From Ophelia neglecta (lineage: Eukaryota): a stretch of DNA of 64,000 nucleotides. The stretch covers positions 45,694,001-45,758,000 of the forward strand of contig OZ260666.1 of the NCBI GenBank assembly GCA_965285935.1, written 5' to 3'. Made by a program: the position numbers and the translations under genes. Below are positions 38,092-62,620 of this stretch, piece by piece (the stretch's first letter is position 1; each line of letters begins with the position of its first letter). A model generated the notes under the pieces. It was given only the letters and a program-made list of their open reading frames with translations. It did not search any database and had not been told where the DNA came from.

Positions 38092-38957
38092 TTAATGATT
38101 ACTTAATAGTTGACCTACCGGCATGTCAATGGATATGCTATTGGGAATCATGCGGTCGACACTTCGGCAGCGATCGACCTTGACCTTTCCATTAGTGCTG
38201 CCGCAGATATTATTAAAGTTCACGGTTGTGTCCTCGCTACCACGACGTGGTACGATCACCTGATTCCCAGCCCCTTTGAATTTGCCCTTATCTTTCTTTG
38301 AGGCACTGAGCGGGAAGGTGGAGTGGCCCTGTTGGAGATTTTCCGGAATAGTTGGCGTTCGGCGCGGGAACGTTTCGTAGCCTCTTTCCGGGCTCATCGG
38401 CCCGTTGGATAGCTCAATATTGACGGACGACTCCTCCGAGGAACATTCTTGATCACGAAGGGCGAATGTGACCTGTTTAGCGAGTGCAACCCCTGAGTCA
38501 TTATCTGTCTCCGTGAGGTTCGGTTGGACCAGATCGGCCTGGACCAGGTCGGCCTGGACCGCAGTGCTTACTAGCTTGTCTTTAGCAGGCTCGTCCGGCG
38601 AGCTTGGGACTTTATTCTCCGTCTGCGTAGATTCCTCCTGGATCACTTCGATGGCCGCCTGAGGCAAGGCATGGCTCTGAGGCGGAGTGGACGCGCGCCC
38701 GAATCCCATCGGCCGGCGACCGCGGCCCATTGGGCTACAGGCCCCGCCGATGGGTAAACTAGGCACCAAGTCCTGGAAACTTTGACGGCGACCACCGTGG
38801 ACGGGGTTCCCGCGACCGCCCGTGACGGGGGTCCCACGAACCGCTCCGTGTGTCGCGTTGTTAGATTGCATAGCTCCCGTCATGGACATGGAAAGACCAA
38901 GTGAGAGAGAGGCGATCGAAGATAGCCCAGTAGAAGTATCCATTTTATGAAAGACAC
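38092..38957 (-). CDS. HVCN1-like: Hv terminal coding exon: ~288-aa low-complexity cytoplasmic tail ending in TAA
   Basis: Acceptor ttttccgctgcag gives a phase-1 join (A+GT = Ser) into VFHK and ORF 38092..38943; GC-richer than the flanks. Confidence 0.87.
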
Positions 38958-41900
38958 CTGCAGCGGAAAAAGTAGTATGAGCATTGAACAGTTGAATTCG
39001 AAATGAGTCCCCATAGGTGTATATTATCGTCTCACTGTCTGCACGAGGTTGGTGATGAAACCAAGGGAGTCAATACCCGGCAAACGACGCGTGTTCTTAT
39101 ATTTTACATGTGTTTTTTGTCCGCAAACCCCTTTAGGCGCCAAAAACAGCAATCTAACTGAAGGACTCATCGCACTCTCAGCGCAGCACATGACTGTGCT
39201 CGTTAATATATCGGCAATTTATTGGTACACAGAAACATTAACCTGGAATCTAACAGGCGATCAGATAAGCCTGTTCGCATATATTCCTTTATATGTTTAT
39301 ATCAATTGCATTTACTTTTTGATGAGGGATATGCGAAATTTTTATACAGCGCAACTTAATCCCGTACGTTATTTCACGCCTCTTTGAAATAAATCAAGTG
39401 TTGGCCTTGATTGACAAAAGGAAAGTTAAAATCATAGTTCCTATCAACAACTAAAATATATAAAGAGAAACTGACTTTTTATACAAGCTTGTTTCTATTA
39501 AGTAAACTTAGGTCTATGCTTGATATTTTCGGATTAGCATTACTACAAGCTTTCAGGTTGCAAGATACTGTCATGGCGTATTGGTTTAAAGCCTGTGGCG
39601 TCTCCAGTAATACACAGTACCTATAAATTCAGTGTTTGCACACATCTTTAGATCAGATACAATTAGTCTTCGACAGTTTGACCGCAAAATGATTGAAAAG
39701 TCCAATTATACAACAGAGCGTTCAACTGTTGCCACTCTGCATCATGTATTAGAACAGCGTTTGCCGAAAGTATACCCAATTGCTTTAATTAAATCTGGGA
39801 ATAAGCATATTGATTTCAGCACACTGGGTTCGTAAAACTTTCCGGCCTTTCTCCGTAGCATACCCGCCCCTTTCTCCAAAATGAAGGTAAAGAAGTCATT
39901 ACAAGGCGACTTGTAACAGGAAATGAAATTGACCATATGTGAATATCCTGACGAACACTGACAAGTGGGTGTATTCAATAAGGCAGACTTACTTCTCCTT
40001 TTTGGCCTACATATGGCGACTTCGTCCTCTAAGGCTCCTTTATCAAAACACAGTTCCTTGAGGGCCAGTATTTCTTTCTGAAACGACGGCAAAGCTTGGT
40101 TAATATATCACTGTCCTTTTTGTACTGACAATCGATAGAATATGACTTCTTTCCAAGATTCAAAGGTAAAACAAAATGGCGTGATATCAATACGTCTGAC
40201 TTACATCCTTGAAGCCCCTATCGTCCTCTAATACTTCGATCTTCTTCTCCGCTCTACGTCTTGCTCGCTTTTGAAGTTTGATACGGAATTCTTGTCGTTT
40301 TTTTGCCGTTATCATAATGCCTGCAGAATTTAATGTAAACCAGATGCCTTAAACCTTATGTTATCATGTTTCATGTAAAAATCGATGATTTTCAATCCAT
40401 TTTTGCACCATAAATGAGCTAGCGTAACTAGTATATTCTGCCAAAGCGCATTACCCTTGACCTAATCTGACATGAAGGCTAAAACAGGCAGAGGAATTTT
40501 ATTTATTTCATTGTCAATTATATTTGTCAATATCCATATCAGGCTAGTAAGATGATACTTTTTACAAAGTAAACCTCCCTAAAAAGATGCCATCCAACAA
40601 TATAAGTGTTTAATTGGGGCCCTATATGCTAGACCTACACGGTGTGCATTATGAAAAAAGGGAGTGGATAACAGACAGACGAAGTCAAGTCAATAACTTG
40701 ACGTCACAATGTAAAGCGCCTAGGTCGACCGCATATGTGCTCAATCAATGCCTTACATTTGACCATATCTACATTGTAAGCCAGTACACAAATATCAAGC
40801 AAACCATTATCATTTTCCTTCGCAATTCGCGAATTGTATTACTGAGGAGTTCAAACATTACTACATGGAGAATAAGGGGGTCACTGACCGTTGATAATGC
40901 GGAGTATCCGCCAAAGCAGGAAGACGATGAGCAGAGCAACCGCCTCTTCTCCTTGTGCGCCTCCTATGCCCTCTACGAATACCACGTCAATGGCAAACGA
41001 CGCTATGATGACTATTCCATCGAACATCTACAAAACACAGTCAGGGAAGTTGTATTAATATATACTACAGCAAGCGCAATAGCACACGGTGTGGAAGGGA
41101 TGGGGGGTTGCATTTCATAAAACATTTTAATGAAAATTGGTTTCTCTTTCATGCCTATATATATTGCCCTAAGTTGATGCATTTGGTATTCTGAGTCTTG
41201 TCAACAACAATCGTCTGATACTATAAGGGGTCATATTAAATGAAACTTACCTCCATTTTATTTTTGAAAAAGCTACCACCCATCGCGTACATTTTGACAA
41301 TCAACTGAAAGGTTTGTGGTAAAGGCGATTAGTATAATTACAATGATTAGAACTTAGCTTTATAACAAAAGTAGCGTTTCGTTAACATGCTGTTCACGGA
41401 TACTGTCCAGAAGTAAGTGTATATTTTGGTTACGAAATCATTCATTTGCGACTCCATAAACGTCAAAAGTGTTACTTAAGAAAACTAACTTACCTGTATA
41501 ACAAATAGACCCAATATTGCTATACTTATATAGTGTAATATATGTGCAATTTTCAACAGTTTTTCTGCAGTGGTATAACCCCTTTTGTAATAGGTTTTCT
41601 TAGTGTAGTCTTTTGAAGAGTTCGCACTGTTATTGGAGTGTGATGAATCAAGCGTATCATTGAGAGCATTATAAGTTGAGATAGGTGAGTCGGTAATGTC
41701 ACCATTATCTGTTATCACTTCCGTTGAGGAATATCCCACCGAACTGCCTCCAGAATCCCCCGTCCCGCGCCGAGAACGAGGCAGCTCGTGCATATGCCTC
41801 CGATGCTCGGCACCGGACATTTGCATATCTTCTAGATGAACATTCGCCGACGACAACGCATCATTCTGCGCATGTCTGTGACGCAGCCGTGGCTTAGTTC

Positions 41901-44900
41901 CTGTTCCTTGCATACTAGTACTGTGTGCGCCAGTTTGTGGCACGGCTTGCATAGGGTCAGAGAGCGTGCCGGTGGCTCCAATATCAACCGGGACGTGAAG
42001 TACCCAGTTCATCTCTGTCACACGAGGCGGCTCTTGGACGTCTACCTGGTGGGTAAACAGCGAATGTGGCTCCACCTGACGACGAGTCCGATTGTAACTG
42101 CTCGCGTCCGTGTTATTATTGCTTGAATATTTCTTCCGCAGTACATCCAATACGTATTGCATGTCCGTGCCATCGTAGTGTCCCAGGTCGTCCGAGTAGG
42201 TGTCCTTTAAGAAGTCCAGAGCGTGGCGTAGCACATTCGTGGTGTCTGTGTGTTGGCCTGTTGCATTGAAAAAGTAAAGAGTCAATTCCAAAGGACATTA
42301 TTTAATAAAGAATGCAAATCTAGTAAATTAAGCGATTATCCATACTTCAATTTCATCGCTATACTAAGCAATGGTCCATTTGGGCCAGTTGCCTGCAATC
42401 GCCTATTAAAGCTTTGACATTCTGAATCGCACCACTGGAAATTAATAGAAAAACTTTCGAGCAAAATTTACATTGGTTTCGCCATGACTTAGTCAGGGTG
42501 ACATAGCCTAAACATCAGGTCATTAAAGCCTGCTGCTATAGGATAATTGTTTGTTCTTTTGCAAACAAATTTTTTTTACAAATTGTCCCAAAGAATCTTC
42601 AGTTTTGAAATGAATCTATGTTTCCTTTCGAATATGTTCCTTAGAACAAGTTCTTTATCATACATTTTTTTTCGTATATATTGGTCAGTCCTGTGGATAT
42701 GAGAATTCGGGTTTCCATTGAGAGGCCAACGCATCCATTCATAGAGCATTGAACTACTAAACACACAAGTATGCCCTTTTCATGTACTTCTGTATAATAT
42801 AATACTCTTATTCATGCGAAATATGATGTTGCCTAAACTGGGAAATAATATCTCTGGTTCTGAGGCTGAACGTTCCTGAACATATCAGACCGAAAAGTCG
42901 TGATTAAAACTTTTGCCTTTCTACTGGGTATCAACTCCTGTTTCTCCCACTGCTCGTACATGGGCATACCTTGAATTAATTGGTGACGTATATAACATGC
43001 AAATAATGTTTAATAGGAGATCACATCTAAATAGCCCTCCCCCCCCCACCCTCACCCCCCCCCCCCCCACCCCCCGGTCGGCTCACTTTAAAGCAATGAC
43101 TGGACTGAAATGGGGCTCCTAGTAAAACATGTTGCCCGAGGAACTTGCTTTCAAGACAATTGTTTCACAATGCAAACATACCGGCCACACTACAAATGGT
43201 ATGCGCAATATTTAAGGATACCATGGAGACACATTTTCTGAACAGAAGTGTTTTATCTTAAAGAGTGATTATTTGCATTTACTATATATACGAAATGTGC
43301 ATAATTAAAATAAGTGGATATAAATATAAAAGTTTCTTATTCATTTCAAAAAATTTCATCTTCTAAAATGAGGGTTGTCATGCTTAGAATAGCTGCCAAT
43401 GTTTATATTGAAAGCTTAAGCTGTGAGTATGAGAAATGGGAAATCCCCCACTGTGGAGTGATATTTCCTTGTGAGTTCTTGGTGTGGGTAGTGCTGATAT
43501 GCACTTTGATTTCCAGTGGAACCAAGTCGACAAGCAATCAATGAGTTAAGTAAGACCGGCTGGCAGGGCGACAGGACGGCCCCTGAGTTCCTTCTCGCAG
43601 TATGTAATGTTATTAATCAAATTTGATAGAAACAGGAAAAGTTGTTTCTCCAAAGTTATACTACACACAGCATCGGTCATCTCCACGATCTGTAATTCGC
43701 ATTTCCCCCAACCTTGTCTAATCAGTTTATCTAGCCAAGGGAACATTCCTTTTGTAGATTCCTCTGAAAATGACCATTCGCGACTAAAGGGCGATGCTGT
43801 GCCTTATGTTGACAAAATATACCTTTTCGTATGTTCCGTGTGGTAAAATCTGGTCAGCCGCAGCTTTTACCAATGATAATTTCTATCTTTGTTATTTCTT
43901 TCGAGTGAGTGTTCAACAAAAATAATTAACATTCAGATTATCAGAACTTGAATGTAAGACCAATGACGTGGTTTAGATAAAATATAATTAGGCACATGAA
44001 TCCGCCATTGGACTTATTTCATCAGTCCAAGCTTACTTGCATTTACTTGATCATGTTCTGTTCTATATCTTCAAGCATTAAATCACGACTCGGAGGAGTA
44101 TATAACACTACTAAAAATCTAAATTTTACGGTTTAAAATAACGGTGTGGCATCACGAAATTCATAAGGCTTTGTCATTTAAAGCCAATATTATTCCTTGA
44201 CGTTTAATTTTGTTCTAGGAAACACAATTTCTTTTCAACCAGCTTGTGATTATCGGAAAAAAAATGCTATAATGAACAGTGCCTCTGGTAGTCGAGATCC
44301 GTAAACCTTTGACAGGAGTTGTCGTTTGCCAGTCAGTTCAATTTAATGCCTTGTCAAATTACAGTTGTGAGACTTGGCTAGGCTTGAGGAATGGGTATCG
44401 ATTGTTTAAATAAATAGAACACAGAACATTACTTAAAACACGTGGTGCAATTTTCAACTATACATAATATGATATTTCTCTCCACATTCTACCTTAGATT
44501 TCTAACCTCTGAACCAGTCATATAAGCCAACTTACGTTGGCTCTATTTTTTGTTATATTTTTTCTCATTGCTTTGGGGCATTCCCCTAGTATTAAAAGGA
44601 ACAAAAACATGTGCCGACATATGCAGTTAGTATTTTAGCTGTCCACTGATGGTAATCTCTTTTGTTGGGTGTTTCTTCTGAAGCACGCAGGAAAAGCGTT
44701 TAAAAACACAGCAAGGAATACAGAAAATTTGAAAGCACTGAAGGATGATGGTAATTAATAAACTATCATCATCCTATGAAAACAGGTACAGCTTGACCGT
44801 AAAATTTCGGTTGATGGAATGTTCATGTAGCTGTAGGCCTAATTGTGAAAAGATTTACAAGACCACTTGGGGTATGTTCATTCTGAGTTCCATACGTTCT

Positions 44901-47900: not shown

Positions 47901-50900
47901 CTCCAGTTACCTGTGTTATTACACAAGCGCTCAAACAGGTACGAGTAAATTCCATTGAGGGTTGAAATAACCTACTTAAATACTTTCACAAGTATGTACC
48001 CTCTACTACCGATACCTTGACCTTACCGTTATGGAATACCCAAAACCGCGATCCCCTACTACAAGGCCAATTATAACCAATCAATTTATCAAAACTGACA
48101 GATGGCATATGTTTGAAAAGCGTCAAAAAAATCAAGGAATTCACATCAAAGCTGGTTGAAGGAGATCCTCTTTGAAAGGAATGGTAACTGAGTTGATAGG
48201 TCTGCATTCTGAGTAGTTATAAACATGTTTCGGTAAGAAGACGGATTGGCGCAGAAGGTCCAAGGAAGCTATCATAATTAAATGGGTACAATTGTACTAC
48301 TAAAGACCCACTACACTACAGCCTACTTGCCTCGGAGGCCTCGGCTTATTGTAATCAGGCCGTAGTTACCGAATAGTTTGTTTCAGCTCGGTAACAGCAA
48401 CTTAATATGGTCTCGGCTTATTGCAGTCAGGCCGTAGAATACCCTCTTGGTTGCTTCAGTGACGACAGCCTATGTTCACGGCTTATTGCATTGAGGCTGT
48501 ATAGTACGCCTACTGATTTGTTTTAGTAACGACAGCCCTTGGTCCCGGTTTATTGCAGTCAGGCTTTATAGTAAGCCCACTTTTTGTTCAAGTAACGACA
48601 GCCTATGGACTCCGCTAATTGTATTCAGGCCGTAGTACACCCACTTGGTTGTTTAGTAACGACAGCCCTTGGTCTGGGTTTATTGTAGTCAGGCCGTTGT
48701 ACACCCACTTGGTTGTTTCAGTAACCCACTTGCAATGGTTGTTTTTGTACTTTCAGCCTATGCATAATGGCAAATTCCCATATCTAATATAGTGAAACAG
48801 TCTGGCTATCATGTTACTTATCTCGTTTCACAAGCGCATTCAAGACAGGCATTCGGACATGCCTAAGGGGCCTCGACTCAAACCGATCGGCAAAAACGAA
48901 GGGGGTCTTCTGATTGTTCAACTCGCCACATAGAAAAGTGCTGGTTCCTCGATTAACCGGAAGCCCCATTATAAGTGAATGGGACTTCCAGTAGTAGTAG
49001 TAAAACTTTGCTATAAAATCATGTATTTTCTCTCAAATATTTGTTTTCTGGATATTGATAGTTGATTTTTCGGGCAGTTCATTCATCTGGCTATCGTATG
49101 ATGCCCTTCGTTACCCCAGCAAATTAGTAAGCTGGCCAGCCATTCAATTTGTGACTAAGGACCTAGGGGTATATTTTCAATGTGCTCGCCTGGATCATGA
49201 GTTTCAGACTCCTTTTGCAGGCAACATTTTATGTTGAATTTAATTTATTGTGTAATACTTCCATTATAAACCCTGATAAATGATTCAATGTGACTTAAAG
49301 TCAAACTTTACAGACCCTATCGCGATCACTCATAAGACGCTAAGCGATGGCAATACGACCGAAACATCTCAAGTGTGTTACGTACGCCGGGAGAGAGGTG
49401 GGCATTCCGCTCGGGTCAGAAAATGGATACCCCATTCCTGTGCTGAATGCCGGCGGCATGGCCGAGTGCTAACTTACACTGCAGTCCTGCTGTGCTTTGT
49501 TGGTGGCCACATCAGGTCGTTATTCTGCCCAACCGTTATTTTCACCACATGGCTTATCATCCGAAAATACAACGGCTCATGATTGAATTTATGTCTTTTT
49601 TTGACAGTTGTGCTCTAAGAGAGAAATCTGGCCCAATATTTCATAAAATTGATCCTGCAGTGCTTACATTAATCAGATAAATTATTGTAAGAACCAGGCG
49701 GAAGCCGTCCAAGAGTCTGTTCATGCCGGTTTGTTTATGATAAGCACATAGTATCTTGTTGCCGGATTCCTCCCCCGGGGGCCATCCTATGCCGTGAGCG
49801 TGTTATGAATACCACGCGACATTAGTGCCAAATCATGGGTATCCATTGGTTAACCGTGGTAAGGCAGAGGTCCTATCGAACTCCGATATTTCATAGAACT
49901 AGCGGTTCTGAAATGAAATTCGAATTTCTCGAGCACCCATTTTTACTAGGGTTAACTACATTTCGTTTGCGAACTTGGCGCTGCAAACTGTGCATTGTAG
50001 AATTGAAGAAGACCGAAACCTGCCGTCTCCATTGGGGTAAAAAGGCCTCGCCTCATTGTAAAACGCCAGGGTTTTGCTTGGAAGTATTTCACAGAGCATG
50101 TATTGATGACCGTACAGCGTCTTAGGCCTTAACATATTGCTTGTTTCCGGTTTCCCGACCGAGCCTAGAATTTACGCCCGAACCCTAATTTTTTTTCGGA
50201 GAAGTAGAACAGATTTTCTGCCAGAAATGCATCGGTAAATGCTGTCGACTGTCACACAGTTTTGCTGCTGCCTGCTCTGGTGTCAGCGGATACCAAGTAC
50301 ATCGACTACTTTCAGTGTCGATCGCCTCGTTTTGGTTACAACCAATTTAAAACCAATCGGTTACTGGATTCTAATTTTATCGCCAATTCGAGCATGCGCA
50401 CTAAGTATATGCATAAAGCCTCCTGCATAGCTCGGGATTCAATATTCTCCTGTAGAGACCGAGGCATCATGGCAGTTGTGATTTCGGGCTACCGCCGTGT
50501 GACAGGAGCGAAGCGGACCTAAACTTTCCAGTGTAGTGTAGGTTTTGTCTTATAGACAGTTAGTTTTTAATGTATACAGTTGTTGTTTTTTTATCAGTAT
50601 CTATATAGCATACACGGGGAGAGATATGCATTGGTTAGGAAATTTGTCATTCCTCTTAGCAATATGCCGAATATACGAGTAACTTTTATCGTCATGATAT
50701 ATCCTCCCGTACAAGTCAATAAAAAATCTGGCAAAAAAAATCCGACCTTCCGGCATATAGTTTTTGCAGTATATAAACGGAAACACGCCATACTTTATTT
50801 AGGGCTCACGGACATCGCGGCAGGTGAGTTTTATTGTGAATTTACGCACATATATTTGATCATTTGCTATTTAAGGTCGTAAAGCAGAATACTAGAATTG

Positions 50901-56900: not shown

Positions 56901-57248
56901 AAAGAGTAGCTTGCTTGTAAACATTCTAAACAATAGATACCTTTTTTGAGGACGCTCTACAATAATGACCCCGTTTTCAAATCTGGGCGGAGCACCACTA
57001 TTCTAACATATATAGAACCCCCACCCCACCCCACCCCCTCCACGGCGATCAAACCTATATATGGCGCTAATGCATAATATGACTTCTCCTGGCCACGTGA
57101 GCGTGGTTTGTAGCGAGACCTACCTCGTATGGCGTGCAGATCGAGGAGGATTTCGGCGATCACCACGCTGGCGTCCACCAACACCAGCACACACAGAGCT
57201 ATCTGGAAAGGATTGCTCTCCAGACACTTAACCGTTTTCCCGCGGCAT
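38092..57248 (-). CDS. HVCN1-like: Spliced voltage-gated proton channel (Hv family, Hv3-like paralog); 7 coding exons found, 5' end incomplete; >=715 aa
   Basis: Joined exons give S1 FQIALCVLVLVDASVVIAEILLDL, S2 HYISIAILGLFVIQLIVK, S3 EMFDGIVIIASFAIDVVF, S4 LLIVFLLWRILRIING and a downstream coiled coil, collinear with human Hv1 (D112, H140, F150, K157, E171, D174, D185, W207, R208, R211 and N214 equivalents present). All six introns are GT-AG with matching phases (1,0,0,1,0,1). No pore (S5-S6) or phosphatase domain follows. Confidence 0.93.
39993..40077 (-). CDS. HVCN1-like: Hv exon: end of coiled coil (KEILALKELCFDKGALEDEVAICRPKRR)
   Basis: 85 nt within ORF 39742..40092; acceptor gtttcag, donor A|gtaagt. 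Confidence 0.85.
40205..40320 (-). CDS. HVCN1-like: Hv exon: post-S4 basic coiled coil (GIMITAKKRQEFRIKLQKRARRRAEKKIEVLEDDRGFKD)
   Basis: 116 nt, acceptor ttctgcag, donor GAT|gtaagt; phase 1 in, phase 0 out. Confidence 0.88.
40889..41027 (-). CDS. HVCN1-like: Hv exon: S3-S4 (MFDGIVIIASFAIDVVFVEGIGGAQGEEAVALLIVFLLWRILRIIN)
   Basis: 139 nt, acceptor tgttttgtag, donor G|gtcagt; carries the WRxxRIING S4 signature. Confidence 0.93.
41251..41304 (-). CDS. HVCN1-like: Hv exon: end of S2 and S2-S3 linker (LIVKMYAMGGSFFKNKME)
   Basis: 54 nt, acceptor acctttcag, donor GAG|gtaagt; aligns to human IIFKLFVFRLEFFHHKFE. Confidence 0.9.
41494..42257 (-). CDS. HVCN1-like: Hv exon: long S1-S2 extracellular loop plus most of S2
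   Basis: Lies inside ORF 41485..42291; acceptor tttactttttcaatgcaacag, donor CAG|gtaagt; 764 nt; its phase-1 start matches the S1 exon. Confidence 0.92.
45768..45850 (+). mobile_element. One end of a poly-G MITE (ttaaggacgaaccatttgattccggggg...)
   Basis: Terminal motif followed by a G-run; the matching inverted end was not found. Confidence 0.35.
48341..48725 (+). repeat. ~65-bp minisatellite, 6 diverged copies, in the long Hv intron
   Basis: Unit cggcttattgcagtcaggccgtagtacacccacttggttgtttcagtaacgacagcctatggtc. Confidence 0.88.
50124..50806. mobile_element. MITE with imperfect terminal inverted repeats and subterminal CCGACC motifs
   Basis: Left aggccttaacatattgcttgtttccg versus reverse complement of right agccctaaataaagtatggcgtgtttccg; ccgacc near both ends. 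Confidence 0.6.
53253..53475 (-). mobile_element. tRNA-derived SINE (degenerate)
   Basis: Minus strand: GGCTCGGTGGCTG..TGGT A-box-like head, then TCCTTGGCAAAAGCGCT, CTCTCCACCAAG...TGGGTACC central block and TATGCTCCCTAGGGAGTTGAGA tail, typical of invertebrate tRNA-SINE superfamilies. Confidence 0.65.
53665..54160 (+). mobile_element. Decayed L2-clade LINE, 3' end of ORF2
   Basis: ISRTKELLS..A..IVHAFITSK, GLP, LQRVQNA, H...LKRL/YWLWVRYRIQFK, FTFKALDG..P, VPRV..YGEALF...PTLWN match the L2 C-terminal consensus (LVHAFITSRLDY, LQRVQNAA, LHWLPV..RI.FK, YG.RAF..AP.LWN). Confidence 0.85.
57124..57248 (-). CDS. HVCN1-like: Hv exon carrying S0/S1 with the selectivity Asp (CRGKTVKCLESNPFQIALCVLVLVDASVVIAEILLDLHAIR)
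   Basis: Acceptor ttttgcgcctgtttcag, donor G|gtaggt; 125 nt, phase 2 in and phase 1 out; Asp codon GAC at 57173-57175. Confidence 0.9.
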
Positions 57249-60535: not shown

Positions 60536-61383
60536 ACCAATCAGGGCGGTTCCTCGAATCGCCCGCCATGTTTAACGGTCTCAACATTGGCTTGCACGAA
60601 TCAGAGTGGTTCCTCGAATCTCCACGCCTTGTGTAACGGTCTCATGATTCCCTTACACCAGTCAGAGCGGTTCCTCAAAATTCCACGCCTTGTGTAACCG
60701 TCTCATAGTCCCCAAACATTATTCAGATTGCTTCCTCAAAATTCCGCACCTTGTGTAACGGTCTCATAATTCTCTTACACCAATCAGAGCGGTTACTCAA
60801 AACTCCAAGCTTCTGTTACGGTCTCATAATTCTCTTACACCAATCAGAGCGGTTCCTCAAAACTCCACGGCTTGTGTAACCGTCTCATAATCACCATACA
60901 CTATTCAGAGCGGTTCCCCAAAATTCCACGCCTTGTGTAACGGTCTCATAATTCTCTTACACCAGTCAGTGCGGTTACTCAAAACTCAAAGCTTTCTGTT
61001 ATGGTCTCATAATTCTCTAACACTAGTCAGAGCGGTTCCTTAAAACTCCAAGCCTTATGTGACGGTCCCATAATTCTCTTACACCAGTCAGAGCAGTTCT
61101 TCAAAATTCCTCGCCTTGTGTAACCGTCTCATTGTCCCCATACATTATTCAGATTCTTCCTCAAAATTGCGCGCCTTGTGTAACGGTCTCATAATTCTCT
61201 AACACCAGTCAGAGCGGTTCCTCAAAACTCCAAGCCTTATTTAACAGTCTCATAATTCTCTTACACCAGTCAGAGCGGTTCCTCAAAACTCCAAGCCTTA
61301 TTTAACAGTCTCATAATTCTCTTACACCAGTCAGAGCGGTTTCTCAAAACTCCAAGCCTTATGCAACGGTCTCATAATTCTCA
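60536..61383 (+). repeat. 61-bp tandem satellite, 14 units
   Basis: Unit ccagtcagagcggttcctcaaaactccaagccttgtgtaacggtctcataattctcttaca; the TCAG anchor recurs every 59-62 nt from 60541 to 61331. Confidence 0.95.
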
Positions 61384-62007
61384 TAAAAGTGCGAAAATAG
61401 AGCAAGTGTCATACGCTTACTCCCATACTCTAAACCTGGCTAGGAATCTGGTCAATAACATAATTCTCGCCTTAGGAGGAGTGAGGTGAAGATCCAAAGC
61501 CACGCACGCGCTCATTCTTAGTGTCCACCTTTTTCACGGCATCATCGCCCACCCTCCTGCCCAGGACACCTATTATTTCCATCAATGGCCATTGTAGGTG
61601 TGCTCCGCGGTCTGGGTATCTATTTCACGACTATTTTCCCCATTAAAAGTCTATCTTTTCAAACTGGTTCTATCAAATGGGTTCTGCCTTTGTCACAAAT
61701 ATACCATTTACTTGGTCATCACATTGGTGGGCCTACCAAGAAGGTCAAATCTGTTCCTTGATAGATGGACTATAATATTGGGATCGTCAAACCATAGCTG
61801 CCGGTAGCCTTTATAAAAAGGATATGGTTCCCACTGAATTACGCTGATTTCTCTGGACACACATATCCTCGCTTCATGTAGATATCTGCATTGTTTGTCA
61901 TTAACCTTTTTCACCATGGCTATACACAGGTGTCCACTTTTGCATTGTTCCTGCATTGACGAGTTCACGGCGCAGTTACTCATTGTGATGATCTTTATGA
62001 AGCCATA

Positions 62008-62620
62008 AGGCAAGCCTCGGGGAGGCAGGCCTCAGGCAGGCAGGCCTTATCCAGGCAAGCCTCAGGCAGGCAGGCCTCAGGCTGGCCTCAGGCAGGCCTC
62101 AAGCAGGCCTCAGGCAGGCCTCAGGCAGGCAGGCCTCAGGCAGGCAGGCCTCAGGCAGGCAGGCCTCAGGCAGGCCTCAAGCAGGCCTCAGGCAGGCCTC
62201 AGGCAGGCCTCAGGCAGGCCTCAGGCAGGCCTCAGGCAGGCCTCAGGGAGGCAGGCCTCAGGCAGGCAGGCCTCAGGCAGGCAGGCCGCAGGCAGGCAGA
62301 CCTCGGGCAGGCAGGGCCCAGGTAGGCAGGCCACGGGCAGGCGGGCCTCAGGCAGGCAGGCCACAGGCAGGCAGGCCGCAGGCAGGCAGGCCTCGGCCTG
62401 GCAGGCCTCGGGCAAGCAGGCCTCGGGCAGACAGGCCTCGGGCAAGCAGGCCTCGGGCAGGCAGGCCTTAGGCAGGCAGGCCTCGGGCAGGCAGGCCTCG
62501 GGCAGGAAGACCACAGGCAGGCAGGCCTAACGCAGGCAGGCCTAACGCAGACAGGCCACAGGCAGGCAGGCTTAACGCAGGCAGGCCTCAGGCAGGTCTC
62601 ATGCATTATGCCTCAGGCCT
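62008..62620 (+). repeat. GC-rich CAGG-derived minisatellite (GGCAGGCAGGCCTCA 15-mer and GGCAGGCCTCA 11-mer)
   Basis: About 600 bp of tandem units; explains the PEACL/RPACL repeat ORFs on the minus strand. Confidence 0.95.

Follow-up and report, generated by a model that had tools for sequence, protein, structure and literature searches.

A family-conserved furin motif in the S1-S2 loop of an unconventional Hv-type channel gene from Ophelia neglecta suggests maturation by proteolytic cleavage

The window analysed here, a stretch of 64,000 nucleotides from Ophelia neglecta (contig OZ260666.1, positions 45,694,001 to 45,758,000), holds on its minus strand a gene which, judged by its sequence, is a proline-less 'unconventional' Hv-type proton channel. 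The long loop between its transmembrane segments S1 and S2 carries the furin motif R-X-K/R-R, and this motif is conserved in the family. Because the motif recurs in worm, mollusc and bryozoan relatives, the channel is probably cut by a furin-like convertase into two chains, the N-terminus with S1 and S2-S4, and the cut would be a maturation switch acting on gating or trafficking. The long His-containing loop itself is already known in the lophotrochozoan Hv3-type group, since it is described in PMC10911540 and PMC10377628; the new element is the furin motif within it, which appears to be family-wide and unreported.

Hydropathy peaks mark four transmembrane segments, S1-S4, as in a voltage-sensor fold without a pore domain. 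The structure model of homologue P0009 resembled a voltage-sensor domain as well, and its best Foldseek rows were voltage-sensor domains, none of them at E<=0.001. The mid-S1 aspartate of the selectivity filter is present, with LVLVDAS aligning to the S1 Asp of the homologues. S4 reads LLWRILR and thus keeps the Trp, R2 and R3 of the conventional signature RxWRxxR. As R1 is absent, the gene is not a conventional Hv1, Hv2 or Hv4. It also lacks the Pro before Trp of the strict mollusc Hv3 signature xPWRxxR, and the tree groups it away from the LPWR clade (100/100). In PMC10377628, 'unconventional' Hv channels are characterised by long intracellular domains and a very large loop between S1 and S2; those of molluscs have the S4 Pro, and those of annelids, bryozoans and nemerteans lack it. 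The window gene agrees with the proline-less annelid and bryozoan type in its LLWRILR, its C-terminus of about 355 amino acids and its loop of 242-243 amino acids by the boundaries used here; a preliminary description of this DNA, made from the letters alone, had recognised the loop as long and put it at about 235. The best full-length match came from Owenia, and the nearest tree rows were L019 and L031, two loci from metagenome contigs, with the placement of the window gene itself carrying no starred support. Within the unconventional group, a proton-selective current has been demonstrated for Aplysia AcHv3 only (loop of 299 amino acids with 13 His; leaky and weakly voltage dependent; PMC10911540), and the window channel is a predicted proton channel. 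The two are alike in the S1 Asp, the S4 Trp, the missing R1, the very long His-containing loop and the long C-terminus, whereas the S4 Trp of the window channel is not preceded by Pro (LLWR instead of LPWR).

The preliminary description had reported two furin sites, RTRR (42090-42079) and RSRR (41778-41767), and both are found again in the spliced minus-strand model. So are the 104-residue segment between the two cuts, which begins with Gln and contains 10 His, and the five N-glycosylation sequons NNT, NRT, NDT, NNS and NSS. Both tetrapeptides agree with the furin consensus given in PMC8791634. Since at least two R-X-K/R-R sites arose in only 0.36% of 100,000 loop shuffles (P=0.0036), the pair is more than chance.

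Homologues were collected by a HMMER search with the S3-S4-coiled-coil fragment (290 matches; 17 of at least 250 amino acids among the 150 matches listed); 9 further proteins came from a profile search and 2 usable candidates from a cluster look-up. Two rows were dropped before counting, P0104, which has neither S1 nor a loop, and P0174, which has no S1 and whose visible loop is free of a canonical site by eye, and the 5'-truncated P0004 and P0132 were counted on the part of the loop present. The count thus covered 16 non-flatworm loops, the window included, and 10 flatworm loops. R-X-K/R-R occurs in 13/16 non-flatworm loops, and in 12/15 once the window copy is taken out, compared with 0.73-0.74 expected by shuffling. 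With one row per lineage, the motif is found in 9/13 against 0.61 expected. The controls stayed low: two conventional Hv proteins that had been set aside (P0136 and P0170) have no site at near-zero expectation, the reversed motif appears in 2/15 loops, the Lys variants K-x-K/R-K, K-x-K/R-R and R-x-K/R-K appear in 2, 1 and 1 of the same 15, and R-X-K/R-R itself lies in 0/13 cytosolic tails and 1/8 N-termini. The residue after the cut was tallied at 15 sites (Ala 9, Gly 2, Ser 1, Asn 1, Gln 1, Lys 1), and His occupies P5 or P6 in 8/15. In 8 short-loop members (bryozoan, mollusc and one further sequence) the site is located 19-23 amino acids before S2. By eye, 8/11 long-loop sequences in the supplement of PMC10377628 also carry the canonical motif, one of the 3 misses being P0006. 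Conservation of the sites was the check that the preliminary description had set for itself, and site 1 passes it, with the motif kept in orthologues.

Among metagenome contigs, 128 loci were found and 80 kept, 8 of these with a readable loop exon. In L019 and L031, HHRKRR stands in register with the RTRR of site 1, and a second site, RSKR, follows 126 and 138 amino acids further on; L028, L030 and L040 have one Arg run each. Within the pairs L019/L031 and L028/L040 the motifs are identical while the spacers contain indels. Site 1 is in register among the annelid orthologues, and a second site exists only in some long loops, AcHv3 included. Motif-bearing rows belong to both deep clades of the tree, LPWR and LLWR, and the label needs 7 changes. 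An old site with repeated losses fits this tree, which does not prove a single origin.

Sequons are enriched in the loops (90 versus 44.6 expected) and not in the tails (52 versus 60.9 expected). Because this two-fold enrichment is confined to the loops, the loop is taken to be luminal, in support of the extracellular topology given in the preliminary description. The AlphaFold model of the window loop exon (mean predicted local distance difference test score, pLDDT, of 52) contains helices at residues 2-24 and 32-47 and is of low confidence from there to about residue 225; both sites (residues 56-59 and 160-163) fall in this stretch at pLDDT<50. In the model of a Bugula homologue (mean pLDDT 77), S1 continues as one helix to residue 114, RNKR (159-162) sits in a low-confidence stretch (151-168), and S2 starts from 173. 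The shared plan in these models is S1, a helical stalk, a linker predicted to be disordered, the convertase motif and S2, and the long loops add sequence after the motif, some of them a second motif. By S1-S2 position, loop sequons and predicted disorder, the motif would be luminal and accessible, with possible masking by a glycan at P5. A search of the organism's own genome gave 8 matches to the convertase P domain.

We propose that a furin-like enzyme would cut the channel after site 1 in the late secretory pathway. The products would be N-terminus, S1 and stalk on one side and S2-S4 with the tail on the other, held together by membrane packing. This first cut is the likely conserved and selected step and would break the covalent connection of the helical S1 extension to S2. 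In the window copy, a second cut at site 2 would release the disordered spacer of 104 amino acids, which is likely merely trimmed off and lacks a conserved function as a His-rich peptide. Cleavage, the staying together of the chains and an effect on the current are what we infer.

The idea of a switch is modelled on the activation of ENaC. In human alpha-ENaC, furin cleaves after RSRR, which is also the sequence of site 2 in the window, and double cleavage opens that channel (PMC8791634). The window channel and the alpha and gamma subunits of ENaC are alike in their extracellular polybasic furin motifs, which are sometimes paired, although the folds are unrelated. In ENaC the tract is short, with paired sites that have co-evolved (PMC8791634). 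In the window family, by contrast, conservation is centred on one site and the long spacer is unconserved, and a cut would split the voltage-sensor domain between S1 and S2. A conserved site pair around a conserved peptide, as in the shed tract of ENaC, was not found, since most homologues have one site and the spacers vary.

Human Hv1 shares the channel fold but has a short S1-S2 linker, and the cut of its sperm form lies in the cytosolic N-terminus and is not a luminal convertase cut. The cleaved sperm form, reportedly described by Berger in 2017, is a precedent for tuning Hv gating by proteolysis. TRPML1, a channel with a large luminal S1-S2 linker, is said to be cut by a lysosomal protease and not by furin; its proteolytic cleavage was reportedly described by Kiselyov in 2005. 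A large cleaved S1-S2 linker would be common to both channels, whereas the TRPML1 linker is a folded luminal domain in a pore-containing tetramer.

Several observations weigh against maturation by cleavage. The gene is known from genomic DNA alone, and a polybasic tract need not be cut, as the RLQR of human delta-ENaC remains uncut (PMC8791634). The shuffle P values ignore relatedness, which the one-per-lineage count reduces only partly. In the window copy, the NRT sequon lies at P5 of site 1, where a glycan could mask the site, and the Gln after the site-1 cut is atypical for the family. The canonical motif is missing from the tandem paralogue, from Lingula P0006 (VHKR only) and from Octopus P0169; among the flatworm loops it is found in 1/10, the free-living Macrostomum, and in 0/9 parasitic species; and 3/8 metagenome loop exons (L029, L089 and L093) have none. 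Hence channels of this family can do without the motif, and the repeated losses together with the P5 glycan speak against a universal need for it.

Cleavage might be real and serve inactivation or turnover instead. Severing S1, with its selectivity Asp, from S2-S4 would then destabilise a leaky, weakly voltage-dependent channel and restrict its activity to compartments upstream of the trans-Golgi. The same motif conservation applies here, and PMC10911540 reports the proton leak of AcHv3 and suggests that the channel is mainly in intracellular membranes, as a leak at the surface would be harmful. In cells that have furin, an uncut fraction could carry the current. We regard this explanation as unlikely. 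That the channel remains one chain, its motif being kept for a reason other than cleavage (e.g. binding of a polyanion or a partner) or largely masked by glycans, is rather unlikely as well. The repeated loss of the motif, the sequon that in the window copy, Eisenia and L019/L031 overlaps site 1 or stands shortly before it, and the uncut tract of delta-ENaC (PMC8791634) would all suit such a channel. However, the enrichment is restricted to the order R-X-K/R-R, patterns of equal charge with the order reversed or Lys swapped in are not enriched, the residues after the cut are small, and the sites lie in segments predicted to be disordered.

The preliminary description had favoured a further explanation, in which dual cuts shed a His-rich pyroglutamyl peptide that is either an inhibitor sensing Zn/pH or a signal. 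The site pair of the window copy, the two separated sites in L019/L031 and, by eye, in Eisenia (RSKR, RRKR), AcHv3 (RFRR, RRKR) and one Notospermus sequence, and an Eisenia spacer of similar length (99 amino acids by eye) are compatible with it, as is a conserved, helical-looking stretch in the L019/L031 spacer. However, of the 13 site-bearing non-flatworm proteins in the homologue count, the 12 besides the window copy have a single canonical site, and the spacers range from 38 to 138 amino acids, differ in sequence and do not align. The spacers of two-site orthologues contain only 2 and 3 His (L019/L031), 3 (Eisenia, by eye) and 0 (AcHv3, by eye), compared with 10 in the window copy, where the enrichment over the remaining loop (10/104 versus 6/139; loop average of the whole family 6.0%) is not significant (Fisher p=0.12). 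The His-rich part of L019/L031 comes after site 2 (12 and 14 His) and would remain on the channel, and Gln follows the cut only in the window copy. The shed His-rich peptide and the pyroglutamate were therefore rejected for want of conservation, and this explanation is very improbable. The convertase motif and the luminal loop of the preliminary description stand; it had overlooked the published long His loop of the Hv3-type group. As a separate observation, the spacer in L019:8374-9246 and L031:96-1010 has a well-conserved, amphipathic-looking stretch of about 40 amino acids, and in this lineage the peptide set free may be functional in itself.

Maturation by cleavage could be extended to the whole group, with due caution. 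Lophotrochozoan unconventional Hv channels might be pro-channels whose gating is switched by the cut between S1 and S2, so that the leak and weak voltage dependence of AcHv3 would be those of the two-chain form and the uncut form would be closed or gate normally. We consider this possible but doubtful. If it is true, the motif-less paralogues would be the unregulated counterparts.

The gene model is a spliced reading of genomic DNA alone. Seven exons within the window, with AG/GT at all splice ends, give a single open frame of 715 amino acids, and the N-terminal exon lies beyond the window, near G000:C9:45,761,850, about 3.8 kb past its end. The S1-to-loop splice spans a 15-kb intron. By eye, the Eisenia transcript GIUK01058977 (supplement of PMC10377628) agrees with the window gene exon for exon and has both furin motifs. 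Since the agreement covers the N-terminal exon, the junction from S1 into the loop, and S2, the gene model is taken to be correctly spliced, and with the Owenia match it points to an annelid host. No RNA data set was among the sequencing runs listed for the sequence, which says nothing about expression. Among three contig sets of one sample, the loop exon shows 5 changes, 3 of which change a residue; neither furin site is touched, and the variation is too little to count. A Pfam search with five exon pieces of the gene gave 0 families, a word search of longer proteins with the loop exon as query found none, and an ESM Atlas search returned no usable match. The features are listed in Table 1.

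Table 1. Features of the channel gene in window coordinates, with its tandem paralogue in contig coordinates
Feature	Position	Strand	Remark
S1 exon with selectivity-filter Asp (LVLVDAS)	57124..57248	-	junction into loop exon agrees with Eisenia orthologue transcript, by eye
764-nucleotide exon: nearly entire S1-S2 loop and first part of S2	41494..42257	-	
Loop start: two predicted helices extending S1 outward	42115..42252	-	AlphaFold helices 2-24 and 32-47; kept in paralogue and orthologues
Site 1, RTRR then Q: furin/convertase motif, family-conserved	42079..42090	-	overlaps NRT sequon
104-amino-acid spacer between both predicted cuts	41767..42078	-	10 His; predicted disordered; sequence not conserved
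Site 2, RSRR then G: second furin motif	41767..41778	-	second site only in some long loops
Three N-glycosylation sequons (NDT, NNS, NSS) on stub expected to remain with S2	41614..41661	-	
Exon: S2 end and S2-S3 linker	41251..41304	-	
Exon: S3-S4, S4 motif LLWRILR	40889..41027	-	R1 to Leu, no Pro
Two exons, 40205-40320 and 39993-40077: helical start of C-terminus	39993..40320	-	likely coiled-coil
Last exon: long cytosolic low-complexity tail	38092..38957	-	
Tandem paralogue	G000:C9:45,622,457-45,656,900 (L005-L009); loop exon L007:5633-6301	-	exon plan same as window gene

Three Hv genes were found by these genome searches: the window gene, its tandem paralogue at a distance of about 98 kb and, on another contig, a conventional Hv with a short loop. 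The paralogue has a loop of 194 amino acids free of the furin motif, with a His cluster adjoining S2, and offers a naturally site-less control for the proposed cleavage. Its S4 reads LVWRIARVAD, with Asp after R3 where most Hv channels have Asn. The conventional gene (L003, G000:C12:25,774,521-25,777,649) has S1-S4 within one exon and the S4 sequence RLWRITK, which bears the K3 signature that PMC10377628 assigns to mollusc Hv4 and fungi. A search of the same genome for an LPWR-type paralogue returned only the three known Hv genes and one weak unrelated match.

Some further observations concern the family. Ten flatworm proteins (P0078, P0087, P0095, P0097, P0111, P0115, P0132, P0133, P0144 and P0173) form a clade of R1-less Hv with a long S1-S2 loop, which the available text of PMC10377628 does not mention. 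LPWR is present in nemertean and one annelid (Owenia) Hv3 (P0045, P0079 and P0163), contrary to the statement of PMC10377628 on the S4 Pro in Annelida and Nemertea, and the supplement of that paper itself contains a Notospermus LPWR sequence. LLWR-type channels (P0006, P0009, P0023, the flatworm homologues and L013) share a conserved motif in the cytosolic N-terminus, W L x x x x F L x x L x x D x x D x x x x x x E. The introns in the window include tandem repeats at 62000-62600, 60560-61370 and 48350-48720, by eye short GCCT-rich units and two arrays of roughly 60-bp units.

Furin is unmentioned in the main texts of PMC10911540 and PMC10377628 and in the supplement of the latter. A literature search within openly available papers, judged by title and the start of the abstract among the papers listed, likewise gave no report of luminal-protease maturation or furin cleavage for voltage-gated proton channels. 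If cleavage occurs and has no effect, the finding would amount to no more than a detail of how a known family is trimmed. If the cut is a maturation step, its position between S1, which holds the selectivity filter, and the sensor S2-S4 would make the channel a natural two-chain voltage-sensor domain. Such a reading would give a purpose to the large loop, which the discoverers of AcHv3 described as having no obvious organisation (PMC10911540), and it bears on the leak current of AcHv3, an open puzzle.

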